Part shown: positions 58,299 through 64,000 of the stretch, one piece after another
Position numbering within the stretch: position 1 is the stretch's first letter
Layout: each line of letters opens with the position of its first letter
NCBI GenBank assembly: GCA_965601925.1
Contig: OZ271854.1
Coordinates: 3,808,001 to 3,872,000 of the forward strand
Reading direction: 5' to 3'
DNA: 64,000 nt
From: Alkalispirochaeta sp.
GTDB lineage: Bacteria; Spirochaetota; Spirochaetia; DSM-27196; Alkalispirochaetaceae
Notes under the pieces: generated by a model
Told to the model about the DNA's origin: nothing
What the model saw: the letters and a program-made list of their open reading frames with translations, nothing else
The model's database searches: none
Translations under genes and position numbers: made by a program

Positions 58299-59924
58299 AT
58301 GGCCTCTTCGTGGAAAGACATTCAGTCAAAAAAAGAGATCGAAGATCTCGACGTACGTCTTAAGCCGATCTTCGGCATACCTCCGGAACGATACATCGTC
58401 GTCATATGGGCCGCGGCCCTTCTGCTCGCCTCGTTTCTGCTGTTGGTTCTTCCCGGCTTGAGGAACTATGGAACGAAACTGACGGTCACCTCTTCACCCG
58501 AGGGCGCTCAGGTGCTTATCGACGAGCGACGAGTCGGGGCGACACCGGTGGAGGTCTTCGTCGAGGCGGGATCGCGAACGGTGACCGTTTCGCACCCCGG
58601 GCAGTCGGAGGTGCTCTCCCTCGATGTACAGGGACGGCGCATCGCCGGGCTCTTCTTTCAGCGTCGCGATGCCGTCCATGTAGCCCTGGATCGCATCGAT
58701 CACGAAGTCGTCATTCAATCCGCGGTCGCCGACTTCGCCTCGTGGGCGCTCAAGGGGTCTCCAAGCGCGCAGTTTCAGATTCCGCCGGTGGCGCACAATG
58801 CGGCTCGCCTGATATGGGCGGACCGCGCGGCGCGACGCGAGGGAGTTGAGACGCTGTTGGTCGACCTCCTCGCTCACGGAACGGCCGATCAAACCGGAGA
58901 TATGCTGGCGGCGGTCGTACGTACGGCAAATCCGCGCGGTGTGGTATCTCCCCTCTCCCTGAGCGAAGTTGTACATTTTTTTATACAGCTTGATAATGCT
59001 TATCCGACCTTTTTCCACGTCGTCGACGGTTTCGCGGATGCCGACTCGACCTCACGTAGGGCCGTATCCGACAGCGCATGGATGCTACGTCGCGAGGAGG
59101 CGCTCTCTACCGCGATTTTGGCCGCATCGATCGTTCCCGATGAACAGCCGGCTCCGAGTGCTCGATTATCGACGGTCGGTGGGGTGCGTTTCGCACGCGT
59201 TCCCGCCGGTCGATACGTCCTCGGCTATCCCCTTCGCGGCGTTCACGTACACGGCGAGCCGGTTCGCTTCACCGATGAATATTGGATCCAGGATTCCGAA
59301 GTAACGCGCGTTCAATACGCTCGATTTCTTGCGGCGCGTCCGGATTGGGCACCGGCCCGACGCGCATCGCTTATCGCGGACGGTCTCGTGGACCGCCACT
59401 ACCTCGCAGATTGGCCCGAGGACTGGACGACGTGGCTGAACGATCCTACAGTGGACGCGACACAGCCGGTGCGATATGTGAGTTGGTACGCTGCAGAGGC
59501 GTACGCCGAGTGGGTGAACGAGGTTGCGGCTCGCGCAATCGACGAGTTGCTTCCCGGCGCGAGGGCGGTACTTCCTACCGCCGCCCAGTGGGAGTATGCG
59601 GCGTTTCTTAACGGTCTGGGGGCGCCTACGGTAGTCAGCGAAGCTACCTCACCGCGCGGAACGACGGAAGCGGCGTCCGGAGCCCTGGGAGCGTACCATC
59701 TGGTGGGCAATCTCTGGGAGTGGACCGCCGACTGGCACGCGGAGCACCGCGTATTTCACGCCCCCACCTCGGGCGATCAACGCGCCGTTTTCGGCGGTAG
59801 TTTTGCAAACCCGGAAGCGTCGCACTCCGTTGCCGGCGCACAGCCTCCCCTGTGGTCCACGCCGTTTCTAGGATTCCGTCTCGCCCTTACGGGGCCCGAG
59901 TTTGCGGTAGAGTACGATGGCTGA
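58299..59924 (+). CDS. Membrane-anchored PEGA plus FGE-sulfatase (SUMF1/EgtB/PvdO-like) domain protein
   Basis: TM helix, VTSSPEGAQVLID...GATP (PEGA), LPTAAQWEYAA, GNLWEW, LGFRL. Confidence 0.85.
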   Translation: MASSWKDIQSKKEIEDLDVRLKPIFGIPPERYIVVIWAAALLLASFLLLVLPGLRNYGTKLTVTSSPEGAQVLIDERRVGATPVEVFVEAGSRTVTVSHPGQSEVLSLDVQGRRIAGLFFQRRDAVHVALDRIDHEVVIQSAVADFASWALKGSPSAQFQIPPVAHNAARLIWADRAARREGVETLLVDLLAHGTADQTGDMLAAVVRTANPRGVVSPLSLSEVVHFFIQLDNAYPTFFHVVDGFADADSTSRRAVSDSAWMLRREEALSTAILAASIVPDEQPAPSARLSTVGGVRFARVPAGRYVLGYPLRGVHVHGEPVRFTDEYWIQDSEVTRVQYARFLAARPDWAPARRASLIADGLVDRHYLADWPEDWTTWLNDPTVDATQPVRYVSWYAAEAYAEWVNEVAARAIDELLPGARAVLPTAAQWEYAAFLNGLGAPTVVSEATSPRGTTEAASGALGAYHLVGNLWEWTADWHAEHRVFHAPTSGDQRAVFGGSFANPEASHSVAGAQPPLWSTPFLGFRLALTGPEFAVEYDG

Positions 59925-60369
59925 CCGCAAGACGCTGGCGCGTAACAGGCGCGCCTTCCACGAGTATGCGATCGAGGATCGCATCGAGGTCGGTATTGTG
60001 CTCCACGGGACGGAAGTGAAGTCGATGCGTGCCGGACGATTCTCCTTCGCCGACTCTTACGCCAGGATACGGAACGGTGAGCTATGGCTTGTAGCGCTCC
60101 ATATCAACGAGTATAGCCACGGAAATCTCTTTAACCACGAACCGACGAGAGAGCGGAAGTTGCTCTGCCACCGCGACGAGATCGATCGCCTCCGACGCCG
60201 AGTGGAAGAGAAGGGCTTTACTCTCATTCCTTTGGAGTTCTACCTCAAGCAGGGGCTGATTAAGCTCGAGTTGGGCGTCGGCAAGGGGAAGAAACTCTTC
60301 GACAAACGCGAGACGCTCAAAGCGAAGGCGCAGAAGCGCGATATGGACCGCGAGATGAGGGGGCGGTAG
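59917..60369 (+). CDS. smpB: SsrA-binding protein
   Basis: NRRAFHEY, GTEVKSMR, RKLL, GKKLFDKRE. Confidence 0.98.
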   Translation: MADRKTLARNRRAFHEYAIEDRIEVGIVLHGTEVKSMRAGRFSFADSYARIRNGELWLVALHINEYSHGNLFNHEPTRERKLLCHRDEIDRLRRRVEEKGFTLIPLEFYLKQGLIKLELGVGKGKKLFDKRETLKAKAQKRDMDREMRGR

Positions 60370-61172
60370 TGGCCGATTCTACACCGAATGCCGACGAACA
60401 ACGGCACGTCCTCCAAGAGTATCTCGATGCCGCGAGAGAGTTCGCCCGCGTCGGAGGCGCGGTCAGCCTCGGATGGTTTCGCGCCGATGCCCTCGAGGTC
60501 GAACGGAAAGCCGACGATTCGCCGGTGACCGTTGCCGACCGCCGAACTGAGGAGGCGATGCGCGAGGCGATACAACGACGCTTTCCGGACCACGCAATCG
60601 TCGGAGAGGAGTTCGGCGGCGAGCTGGGAGCGAGCCGTTACCAGTGGGTGATCGATCCCATCGACGGCACCAAGACATTCGTCCGGGGCGTTCCGCTCTA
60701 TACGACGCTCGTCGCCCTCGTTGTCGACGGAAAGCCGACTATCGGAGTGATTTACTGTCCTCCTACCGGCGAGATGGCCTCTGCGGCGGTCGGTTGCGGA
60801 GCGTGGGACGAACGAGGACGACGCATACACGTCTCCGGTACGACACGCCTGGACGAGGCGTGGTTTTTCTCGACCGATCCCGCCGATTTGCTGCGACGCC
60901 ACCCGGAGTGGGGACATGCGCTCCTATCGCGAAGTGCCGCAGTGCGAACGTGGGCCGACGCATACGGATATCTACTCCTCGCCCGTGGTGACGCCGATCT
61001 CATGTTCGATCCGATTATGAGCCCCTGGGATATCGCACCGCTCTCGGTGATCGTTAGAGAAGCGGGTGGTGTCTTCACCGATGATACGGGCGCGCATAAC
61101 GATTTAGGTGCCTCGGCGCTCTGCGCGTCCAGCCGTGCCCTCCACGACGCGGCATTGCGCCTGCGCCGCTGA
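60369..61172 (+). CDS. Inositol monophosphatase family protein, probable histidinol-phosphatase (HisN-like)
   Basis: KADDSPVTVADR, GEE, WVIDPIDGTKTF, WDIAP. Confidence 0.85.
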   Translation: MADSTPNADEQRHVLQEYLDAAREFARVGGAVSLGWFRADALEVERKADDSPVTVADRRTEEAMREAIQRRFPDHAIVGEEFGGELGASRYQWVIDPIDGTKTFVRGVPLYTTLVALVVDGKPTIGVIYCPPTGEMASAAVGCGAWDERGRRIHVSGTTRLDEAWFFSTDPADLLRRHPEWGHALLSRSAAVRTWADAYGYLLLARGDADLMFDPIMSPWDIAPLSVIVREAGGVFTDDTGAHNDLGASALCASSRALHDAALRLRR

Positions 61173-61231: not shown

Positions 61232-61586
61232 GGGGGTGTTCCGGATTCGACTGGGGCTACATTGAGCGGTACGTGGCAGGTGGAGCGTCATCTCCTGATT
61301 GACACCTTTTTATCTGCCAACGAAGCAGACTATCTTCCTGTTGCTGCGTAAGTAGTATAATAGGACGGGCGCGCGGGGCGCGGTTCTGAGCCTCGCGTAG
61401 CTTGACAGAAACCAGGACTTACCGCCGGCTCTTTCCGGCGTGTCGGTGGGACATCAAAAGTCGGAATCGGGCGGCGATTGGCCCGTTTGGCCGCCGAAAT
61501 CGCCGCCGACACTGTAAGGCTGAACTAAGCCTGTAGAAGCGTATCGCCGGTACCTTAGGACAGGGGTTCGACTCCCCTCACCTCCA
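61232..61586 (+). ncRNA. ssrA: tmRNA
   Basis: 5' GGGGGTG..GGATTCGAC; T-arm AGGGG-TTCGACT-CCCCT; acceptor GGGGGTG/CACCTCC-A with G3.U; internal tag ORF; smpB nearby; full CCA not encoded. Confidence 0.97.
61316..61351 (+). other. tmRNA proteolysis tag frame (A)ANEADYLPVAA
   Basis: GCC AAC GAA GCA GAC TAT CTT CCT GTT GCT GCG TAA; ends in AA like typical tags. Confidence 0.88.
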
Positions 61587-61594
61587 CGTTTCGT

Positions 61595-61629
61595 AGCGCT
61601 GTAGAACAGAACCTGCAGCGCTTTTTTTT
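61595..61629 (+). terminator. Intrinsic terminator of ssrA
   Basis: AGCGCTGTAG...CTGCAGCGC followed by T8. Confidence 0.85.
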
Positions 61630-62689
61630 GTCGTGCGAGAAGCCGGCTCAAAGGGCCTCTTCTGTTTTGTAACCAACGCATAACATTATGTCGGTGCCAT
61701 TACTGAAACCACGAGCCTGAGAGGCTGCCGCCGCCGAGTTATCATCCGGTCGATATAGACCCAAATACATTCTACTCCCTTACCAAGACTATCGTGTCGG
61801 CGGTGTGGGATCTGGCGGACGTCTCGTGGTAAATACTCCGCTACCATCTGAGATAGGACAATTTTGAAAGTCCTTTGCGAAGTAGAATCGCGTGGCATTT
61901 TTGGCTGACAAACCGTTGAAATCTGCTACGGTTTTGCAATCGATCTCGCTATCTTCGAACCCGGCTGCAAGAATAACGTGTGGGAAAACGGGTAGGATCA
62001 AATGATCATCGTAATGATCAGCTACGATGAACTGACCGCTCGACGCGGTCAGCCTTCCCCACTTCTGGTCTCGCAGTGTCAAGGACTGCTGCATTATCGC
62101 AACTTGTATCTGATCGCCAACAAAAAATCGACTGGGAACTGATCCACCGTCGCGCAAAAAACTTACGCCTGCGACCTCAGCTTTTTCTTCTTGATCTTTA
62201 CTCAAATCAGAAACAGAGTGATCAAAACCTACGAGGGGAGTATCGTCTTTTATTTTCTGATCAAAGTGATATCGCCATTTCAAGAGTAACCAATACTCTG
62301 TGACTGTTAGGTGATCTCAAAGCTTGAAGTCAGTCCAATTACTTGTTTCCTCCAAGAACTTGTCTTCAATCGACTTCGCATAGCCGCCCTCTGACCGTTG
62401 GTCCCAAACTCTCTTGGTAAAGAAAATGCGTTCTCGAGGGCCGCGTGTTTGCACCTTGCCAGAATCCCTGTAGCGAACCTGAACTTTTCCGTTCTGGCCG
62501 CAGAAACGACTGATCGTGGCGGCCATGTGAATGTGTTGGTTGACAGTAATCTGATTGGGATTACTTTGCTGCGTTTTTTCGTAATCTGACATGTTTGTTC
62601 ATGTGCTACTACTCGATCACCACGCAGGCGGATAGTCGGGTGGCAACGCGATTTCAGGCGCTCCTCCCGCCAAGCATTGGTGCACCACC
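61630..62689. mobile_element. Low-GC foreign islet/remnant between ssrA and guaA (no integrase or att duplication seen)
   Basis: Hand counts of three 60-nt lines gave 37-42% GC versus 63% for a guaA line; lies between two known integration-target genes. Confidence 0.55.
61789..62592 (-). pseudogene. DUF4238-like gene interrupted by one in-frame TGA (62317-62319)
   Basis: ORFs 62317-62592 and 61789-62283 share a frame (...TDFKL*DHLTVTEYWLLLKWRYH...), 267 codons in total; N-terminal NQHI...ISRF resembles the DUF4238 motif (family call from recall). Confidence 0.65.
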
Positions 62690-62945
62690 TCCCTCTCCCC
62701 ACCGATCCACCAAGCGGCCCCGGGTACGAAGGTTCACGCGCGTGGGATGATGGTGGCGATGAGCACGACTTCTGGCCCGGAGGGCCTGCTGAGTGCTCGG
62801 CGACACCGTCGTCCCGCTTCCCTTTCCCCCACAGTCCACAAAGCGGTGTCGGGCGCGGGAGCTGCCTCAGGAGGTGGGTGGTGGTGGCGGACGCGGCTTC
62901 TGACCCGCAGGGTCTGCATGAGCGTCCGCCGCCGCCGCCCGCGCT
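62690..62945 (+). repeat. Two tandem ~130-nt structured elements with covarying hairpins
   Basis: Shared leader TCCCTyTCCCC..TCCACmAAGCGG and shared hairpin architecture at 62742-62817 and 62874-62942. Confidence 0.85.
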
Positions 62946-62981
62946 CGTGGTTATCACACCCACCCTCGAGCACGCACCGTA

Positions 62982-64000
62982 CTATTCCCATTCGATCGTC
63001 GCCGGCGGCTTTCCTGAGTAGTCGTAGACGACGCGACCCACCTGAGGAACTCTGTTGGTTATTGCCGCCGCGACGTTCCGTAGAAACTCCGGCTTGAAGT
63101 CGTATACGTCGGCGGTCATACCGTCGCGCGAGACGACCGCCCGCAGTGCGATGACGTCGCCGTACGCTCGGCTGTCTCCGGCAACGCCCACCGACCGAAT
63201 CGGCAGGAGGACCGAGAGGGCTTGCCATATCTCGTCGTACAGACCGGCGTCGCGAAGTGCTTGGATGAAGATCGCGTCCGCCTCGCGCAGTATCGCGCAC
63301 CGCTCCCTCGTAACCTCCCCCAGGATTCGCACCCCCAGTCCGGGACCCGGGAAGGGGTGACGTCCGACGATGGTGCGAGGAAGACCGAGCACCGCGCCGA
63401 GTTCGCGTACCTCGTCTTTGTACAGTGCGGAGAGCGGCTCGACGATGCTGCCGGCTTCGCGTTTGGCCTGTACCAGGGGACTCGCGACGTTATGATGGCT
63501 CTTTATTTTCGCCGCGTGATTACCTACGCCGTGACCGCTCTCGATCAGGTCGGTATACAGCGTCCCCTGCGCCAGATAGTACTCGCCGTCCAGGCGTGTG
63601 GCGATCTCGCGTTCCTGCACCCGAATGAAGAGATCGCCTATGATAGTGCGCTTCTCCTCAGGATCGGTAACGCCCGCCAGCGCATCGAGAAACTCGTCTT
63701 CGGCGTCAATGAGGTAAAGATTGCGCGCTCCCAACGTGCGTAGCGCTGCGCCGATCTCTTCGGATTCGTTTTTTCGCATGAGACCGGTATCGATGTACAT
63801 CAGATGAATCCGGTCGGGGTCGAGAGCGGAGAGGAGCAACGCGGCTACGACCGATGAGTCGACGCCTCCCGAAATGAGGAGCAGCACGGGAGTCGAGCCG
63901 ACGCGACGACGAGTCTCCTCCTCCAGCTCCCCTCGATAGTCGGCGACCGACCACTGCCGTCGCGCACCGCATACGCGGGTTGCGAAGTTATCAAGAATGA
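62982..64000 (-). CDS. guaA: GMP synthase (glutamine-hydrolysing), 3' part; 5' end lies beyond the window
   Basis: SGGVDS, QGTLYTDLIES, IKSHHNV, RHPFPGPGLGVR, KPPATIEWE; frame open to the window edge. Confidence 0.98.
   Translation of the reverse strand, partial: ILDNFATRVCGARRQWSVADYRGELEEETRRRVGSTPVLLLISGGVDSSVVAALLLSALDPDRIHLMYIDTGLMRKNESEEIGAALRTLGARNLYLIDAEDEFLDALAGVTDPEEKRTIIGDLFIRVQEREIATRLDGEYYLAQGTLYTDLIESGHGVGNHAAKIKSHHNVASPLVQAKREAGSIVEPLSALYKDEVRELGAVLGLPRTIVGRHPFPGPGLGVRILGEVTRERCAILREADAIFIQALRDAGLYDEIWQALSVLLPIRSVGVAGDSRAYGDVIALRAVVSRDGMTADVYDFKPEFLRNVAAAITNRVPQVGRVVYDYSGKPPATIEWE

Follow-up and report, generated by a model that had tools for sequence, protein, structure and literature searches.

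Hairpins beside guaA in an Alkalispirochaeta genome are very probably copies of a dispersed repeat with Flavo-1-type ancestry

The attC sites of integrons are strand-biased hairpins with an internal loop and a variable apex, closed by an RYYYAAC inverse core and a GTTRRRY core with paired L boxes, and they are recombined by IntI as a single strand. IS91/ISCR elements have oriIS ends and acquire DNA by one-ended rolling-circle capture, REP/REPIN sequences are intergenic hairpin repeats with RAYT transposases, and adjacent deletion by insertion sequences gives a fixed element end with variable far ends. Flavo-1 (RF01705) is an abundant orphan motif that was originally proposed as an RNA (Weinberg et al. 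2010, PMC2864571), and a Flavobacterium transcriptome study reports Flavo-1 matches in sense or antisense alike, many of them outside transcribed regions (PMC9723704); the literature naming Flavo-1, as far as consulted, offers no mechanism. The seven Flavo-1 rows consulted in the published alignment (PMC2864571, supplement file 4) all share the left end and an AGCCCG junction, and past the region that Rfam models they continue into a second arm, which is short and ends in an ACGCCC-type right end. Homology-facilitated illegitimate recombination has been invoked to explain the orphan module arrays found at Rhs, CDI and T6SS loci (Kirchberger et al. 2017, PMC5361080).

The window analyzed here is a stretch of 64,000 nucleotides from Alkalispirochaeta sp. 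(GCA_965601925.1, contig OZ271854.1, positions 3,808,001 to 3,872,000 of the forward strand); its genome, called G000 below, is a single contig of 5.05 Mb that is 96.7% complete. Two adjacent hairpin units lie in this window between the gene for tmRNA and guaA, which converges on them (Table 1). In 10 of the 20 relatives with a guaA match, tmRNA and guaA stand tail to tail, about 10-130 nt apart; in G000 the spacing is 1392 nt and consists of low-GC DNA followed by the repeats, which cap the insert. The element is absent from this site in the relatives examined. One cargo ORF (62317-62592) is likely a DUF4238-like remnant, a lead only, given an ESM Atlas score of 0.95 to DUF4238 clusters with a recognition value below the bar. 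In one relative, G004 (L140), this site (60-330 nt past the guaA stop codon) is occupied by a repeat mosaic of another kind, GC-rich and containing a tail-like word, that gave no model match. On the other side of the locus, an inositol monophosphatase family gene (60369-61172) is found between smpB (59917-60369) and tmRNA.

Table 1. Features of the tmRNA-guaA locus (window coordinates) and of related loci elsewhere in the genome (prefix G000:C1).
Feature	Coordinates	Strand	Description
tmRNA gene, left anchor of the insert	61232..61589	+	Rfam RF00023, 143.6 bits
Terminator-like hairpin and T run after tmRNA	61595..61630	+	consensus scan
Low-GC cargo	61630..62620	.	GC 0.41-0.54 vs 0.60 for the genome
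Cargo ORFs	61789-62283, 62317-62592	-	no Pfam match
Possible third unit, truncated	62622..62663	+	5' arm and start of internal loop; nhmmer E 2.7, weak
Unit 1	62690..62818	+	pyrimidine-rich leader, hairpin, no tail
Unit 1 long stem	62742-66/62793-817	+	
Unit 1 internal loop	62767-73/62787-92	+	
Unit 1 apex	62779-81 (loop)	+	5-bp apical stem, c(GGA)g loop
Unit 2	62819..62945	+	leader, then hairpin
Unit 2 long stem	62874-94/62922-42	+	
Unit 2 internal loop	62895-901/62915-21	+	
Unit 2 apex	62907-09 (loop)	+	5-bp apical stem, c(GCA)g loop
Conserved tail, right end of the element	62946..62980	+	family alignments; 1-2 nt short of guaA stop codon
guaA (GMP synthase) 3' part, right anchor of the insert	62982..64000	-	Pfam GMP_synt_C, E 4.5e-35
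Large-gene loci	G000:C1:1324000-1348417 (L001), 4142000-4161678 (L002), 4313400-4324689 (L008)		
Sites of the ~30-45 nt hairpin module	G000:C1:1590247, 1766021, 1962312, 2923007, 3111498, 4313438, 4727939		
Tandem arrays of the ~30-45 nt hairpin module	G000:C1 1522632, 1529101, 2060595, 2356835, 4988126		

Both hairpins are present with the stems, loops and apices of the original prediction, the stem of unit 1 comprising 25 positions (with four G.T pairs and two mismatches) and that of unit 2 comprising 21 pairs (four of them G.T). The element itself had been drawn too short, as the tail of unit 2 runs to about 62980 and the model match for this unit spans 62823-62984; unit 1 has no tail, and the last part of its 3' arm also serves as the beginning of unit 2. 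The claim that the fold is specific to the + strand also stands: folded as RNA, the + strand gives z -3.11 (0 of 200 shuffles as good) and the - strand z -1.15, which is no better than chance. Under DNA folding, z is -2.74 (+) and +0.36 (-) for unit 2, and no better than -1.60 (+) for unit 1. An alternative 8-bp helix (62801-08/62844-51) had been described as mutually exclusive with the unit 1 stem; its halves are complementary, yet a match of this kind occurs in 65% of 1000 shuffles, so we reject it as a switch, and its 3' half falls in a stretch that is variable across the family. A decayed protein-coding repeat can likewise be discarded, because the three overlapping ORFs have no Pfam match and the family covaries as a fold. 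An Rfam scan found tmRNA as the sole match nearby, with no RNA family over the window units, and no known RNA family at nine loci holding other copies. Two promoter-like sites were found vs 0.9 expected, none immediately upstream of the units. In the single RNA run consulted, coverage is confined to the tmRNA of a relative.

Searches with BLAST and an iterated profile, of the kind proposed with the original prediction, recovered 35 copies in G000 at E<0.01 (29 at E<1e-5), and a covariance model gave 33 among the matches listed. The two units are thus adjacent as described but are not a private pair, being two among about 35 diverged and dispersed copies. Sorted by eye, the family comprises 16 A-type and 19 B-type copies, and both window units are B-type. 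The nearest copy to unit 2 has 78% identity and lies at 4406033, that to unit 1 has 69% identity and lies at 4990218, and the junction between the units is seen again at 4406008. Because the units are not each other's nearest relatives and their junction recurs, the tandem is a stack of different family members rather than a local duplication, and its arrangement is incidental. Identity to the nearest copy is 59-85% throughout, bar two local pairs (90% and 97%), which indicates that the spread was not recent.

Outside G000 the core hairpin was found, among the matches listed, only in the genomes G009 and G019; these model searches scored limited candidates per genome (42; 150) and missed a second G019 copy that was found otherwise. 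Viral contigs gave no matches, species genomes gave none and then two (the match in L069 being coding sequence), and metagenomes gave 11, of which three are real. Four further loci (L070, L071, L076 and L081) hold the same single copy as L038 and add no independent loci, and a core pattern run over 99 genomes returned single matches in eight others, not above the reversed control. The second G019 copy (L178:9647-9808) is 5'-truncated, ends at the stop codon of a convergent gene and sits behind toxin-antitoxin-like ORFs, with the same polarity as in G000.

Several other arrangements were observed. A-type and B-type copies form head-to-head inverted doublets (L007:4843-5431, between two EF-G paralogues, and L011:5031-5567), and single genes or gene pairs of lower GC are bracketed by two direct copies in a cassette-like manner (L003:4984-6180 and L004:5116-7620). 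Another hairpin module, ~30-45 nt long and distinct from the element, occurs both as insertions at the element's apex and in independent tandem arrays (Table 1), and other small hairpin modules insert into the stems.

When the A-type copies are followed in the 5' direction, the relationship of the family to Flavo-1 emerges. These copies reach a common left end, giving a two-armed element of about 260-415 nt in which the hairpin is the second arm; a homologue of the first arm is found upstream of 10 A-type copies, once alone, and upstream of none of the B-type copies, including the window units. Full-length copies share with Flavo-1 the GCG-N-N-AGGG left end, the AGCCCG junction and the GGG..ACGCCC right end, with order and strand also matching, as far as the published alignment was consulted, and both repeats are intergenic, multicopy and without fixed orientation. 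They differ in that the Rfam model of Flavo-1 covers the first arm only, whereas the second arm in G000 is expanded to about 170 nt; the window subfamily departs further, having no first arm and keeping the right-end motif alone. Of 18 distinct parsed elements, 14 have ends that pair at five of five positions, and compensatory changes are seen when lineages are compared; of the remaining four, two pair at four of five positions and two were mis-picked by the script, and a further three yielded no right end and three no parse.

An 18-nt motif from the left arm occurs in 28 of 99 genomes of the order (reversed control, 0). Among short relatives found with the G000 left arm, three of 18 loci match RF01705 on the same strand at 25.7-32.5 bits, below the gathering cut-off of 42 bits; 12 further relatives' loci and the G000 copies gave no match, so that by gathering score neither G000 nor the relatives' loci scanned contain a member of RF01705. 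A link to a known Rfam family, which would count against the element being undescribed, is therefore seen indirectly through relatives and below threshold, the window copies themselves having no match; the description as new holds for the hairpin-bearing arm and fails for its parent element, which is Flavo-1-like. From these likenesses in sequence, the hairpin is likely the payload of a greatly enlarged second arm descended from that of a Flavo-1-type element, although for B-type copies this ancestry is traced through the A type since they have no first arm. We consider it very probable that the two hairpins are copies of a dispersed repeat with Flavo-1-type ancestry. This arm, the independence of the B type and the joint rule described below are new relative to known Flavo-1, being absent from those parts of the literature that our searches covered.

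The copies have no fixed orientation to genes: with gene ends taken from a home-made ORF caller, the 3' neighbor is convergent in 15 of 35 copies and co-directional in 20. Thirteen of the 15 convergent neighbors end 16-64 nt from the profile end, and gaps on the 5' side range from 38 to 1331 nt. With the two flanks taken at different offsets to exclude the element, GC is lower on the 5' side of 26 of 35 copies (p 1.7e-4), and of 18 of the 27 copies outside arrays (p 0.009; eight array copies left out). The element is polar, with its right end abutting host gene ends and lower-GC DNA on its 5' side. Copies are also found at the ends of housekeeping genes.

Each of three large paralogues in G000, about 3100 codons in length, is followed by a small low-GC gene and then by an element (Table 1), and we read these from their layout as putative polymorphic toxin/immunity loci. 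Pfam gave a weak M23 match in one tip only, and the Atlas lead was under 0.9. The large genes have variable tips and apparently form an unnamed polymorphic-toxin-like family with homologues in G004 and G019. Behind two of the three lie arrays of truncated bodies whose tips and partners differ, so that the order of full-length gene, immunity-like gene and truncated bodies is that of Rhs, CDI and T6SS orphan arrays. As described in the consulted parts of PMC5361080, however, those arrays have no known dedicated joint site or integrase, whereas the G000 modules are headed by a structured repeat and joined at a fixed distance from it.

Seven of the eight array copies are immediately followed by a fragment of the gene body, and these fragments start at different positions along the intact gene. 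Six of the seven fragments begin with ACG, always at a distance of exactly 11 nt from the closing strand, and the remaining one has ATG; a pair among the six represents one duplicated event, which leaves five of six independent joints with ACG vs a frequency of 0.043 in the gene body, for an offset that was noticed post hoc. In all four of the ACG joints that can be aligned as DNA, the intact gene has ACG at the matching point, and no target duplication is seen at the right joints comparable with the intact gene. A-type copies outside arrays have no ACG at this offset. Many B-type tails contain a second ACG-like word 9-11 nt past the first, suggesting that ACG may be borne by the element and act as microhomology. 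In other genomes, an element lies 2.3 kb behind the homologous large gene of G019 and another lies between two RHS fragments in G009; short Flavo-1-like copies follow low-GC genes by 13-111 nt at three of the four sites found in G012 and at that in G015, where the case for toxins is weak.

We tentatively propose, at somewhat short of an even chance, that the element is the folded end of single-stranded DNA and a preferred joint for splicing incoming DNA into the chromosome. Incoming single-stranded DNA ending in the element would use ordinary homology to pair its far end with the chromosome, the folded element would set the joint of the non-homologous end with the 3-nt ACG as crossover core, and the resident DNA would be pushed behind the element. 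Repeated events would then give arrays of modules headed by elements, and at the tmRNA-guaA locus would give cargo and stacked elements. Cutting and joining might be performed by a nicking enzyme acting in trans or by host repair alone, both of which fit. Such a route would be the homology-anchored joining considered for orphan arrays generally (PMC5361080, as consulted) with a structured site added.

The same joints could be produced without any capture. A passive selfish repeat could spread as folded DNA and survive only at gene ends, later deleting from its own right end to the next ACG, and would in that case mark joints and capture nothing. The combination of a fixed element end with variable far ends is the outcome of adjacent deletion, and the copies at the ends of housekeeping genes are also in keeping with this explanation. 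In G004, moreover, the joints of a homologous orphan array are short and the element is missing, and one module of that array begins at roughly the codon where a G000 orphan begins, which indicates that arrays need no element and that the element may have arrived later. A passive repeat alone, however, leaves unexplained both the lower 5' GC outside arrays and the presence of elements downstream of the immunity-like gene at three of three large-gene loci in G000, and we regard it as unlikely, though a serious competitor.

Covariation was assessed in the 23 of 35 copies without long insertions, using 26 pairs drawn from their consensus. Pairing holds in 87% of cells vs 76.5 +/- 0.8 in shuffles, and 17 of the 26 pairs show substitutions at both partners (equalled by 0 of 500 shuffles; slid controls reach 30-42%), which is strong support rather than a probability, as the copies are related and the structure was drawn from their consensus. 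The aligned copies thereby support the original inference that selection acts on a fold that is strand-specific and has a conserved internal loop. The commonest apex is c(GNA)g, found in 11 of the 27 copies that could be parsed, and each of the four bases occurs at its middle position; the other 16 parsed apices have other loops, none of the 27 is GNRA or UNCG, and eight of the 35 copies could not be parsed. GNA mini-hairpins are reported to be far more stable in DNA than in matching RNA (PMC13037366). Under DNA parameters the + strand is favored in 31 of 35 copies vs 45 of 175 shuffled sequences, and under RNA parameters in 13 of 35 vs 29 of 175; the stem alone prefers the + strand in 30 of 35 copies as DNA and 27 of 35 as RNA, so the case for DNA rests on the loops and context and not on folding energies. 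The element probably folds as DNA rather than RNA.

A structured RNA, such as an sRNA or a stabilizer at the 3' end of the guaA or tmRNA transcript with a protein at the internal loop, would account for the covariation, the G.U-compatible pairs and the + strand preference of the stem alone under RNA parameters, and would agree with the first proposal for Flavo-1. It is nevertheless improbable when set against the missing GNRA and UNCG apices among the 27 parsed copies, the free orientation to genes, the absence of the element from the tmRNA-guaA site in the relatives examined and the Flavobacterium Flavo-1 matches, which lie in either sense and in many cases outside transcribed regions. Of the candidates first suggested, single-stranded DNA serving as a substrate is a better fit than either an ncRNA or a protein-binding array, in light of the GNA triloops, the lack of fixed gene orientation and the joints at a fixed distance from the element end.

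That the repeat is a MITE, a non-autonomous cut-and-paste element mobilized by a DDE transposase, is very improbable. Full-length elements do have paired ends, and G000 encodes IS3- and IS1182-family transposases, but these paired ends are only 5 nt long, are unlike those of the G000 IS1182 copy and are not terminal inverted repeats shared with an insertion sequence; the joint lies 11 nt outside them, the window subfamily has no left end, and, as noted above, no target duplication is seen at the right joints comparable with the intact gene.

No obvious enzyme accompanies the family. Y1/RAYT, IS110 and RT genes have no match in G000, and its IS91-like (Y2) transposase gene is a single, frameshifted copy; that gene (G000:C1:3753892-3755228) stands beside a low-GC gene cluster. 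By our own tally over mostly incomplete assemblies, Y1 genes occur in 10 of 28 motif-bearing vs 23 of 71 other genomes and Y2 genes in 7 of 28 vs 22 of 71, so neither tracks the motif across the 99 genomes, and the flanks of 59 Y1/Y2 loci contain no element, with one partial match at E 0.014. The element resembles IS91/ISCR in its single fixed end, variable adjacent cargo and single-stranded hairpins; it differs in having no linked Y2 transposase, no co-occurrence with one, and no likeness around the G000 Y2 gene or in the flanks of 29 Y2 loci of the order. It resembles REP/REPIN in forming intergenic hairpins at gene ends with tandem and inverted doublets, but is much longer and has no short tagged palindrome unit, and no RAYT gene in relatives is flanked by it. 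A derivative of a group II intron, suggested by the look of the ends, was rejected for want of an RT, domain V-VI or D1-D4 match.

G000 also contains an integron (G000:C1:3558300-3569585, L021) with its own 121-nt attC family, copies of which lie at 2199663 and 3734241, and an IS1182-family element sits at the start of an attC in this integron. That the hairpins are non-canonical attC-type sites for the integron integrase is very unlikely: a true integrase is encoded (TIGR02249, 401 bits vs a cut-off of 265), the fold is a strand-biased hairpin with an internal loop and variable apex, and GTT occurs in many B-type tails, but the element is unrelated to the resident attC family, neither window unit was among the sites listed by a canonical attC scan, no AAC/GTT pair closes the fold, two outer stems tried for the window subfamily gained no support from covariation (75 and 196 of 500 shuffles did as well), and the copies are dispersed at host gene ends with array joints at ACG rather than GTT.

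Our preferred reading remains that of a folded single-stranded DNA end that sets the joint of incoming DNA. Orphan toxin arrays are usually ascribed to illegitimate recombination without a known site, and G000 offers base-exact joints of a Flavo-1-type element with target genes whose intact forms are also present. The question of what Flavo-1 does and the question of how orphan arrays form therefore meet in whether the folded element fixes the joint. If it does not, the family is one more lineage-specific repeat. A broader and doubtful possibility is that Flavo-1-type elements generally are single-stranded DNA recombination ends whose fold sets the joint of capture; they would do attC-like work without an integrase of their own, and in this spirochaete one lineage of them would build the orphan arrays of putative toxin/immunity modules and cap small gene islets such as the one between tmRNA and guaA.
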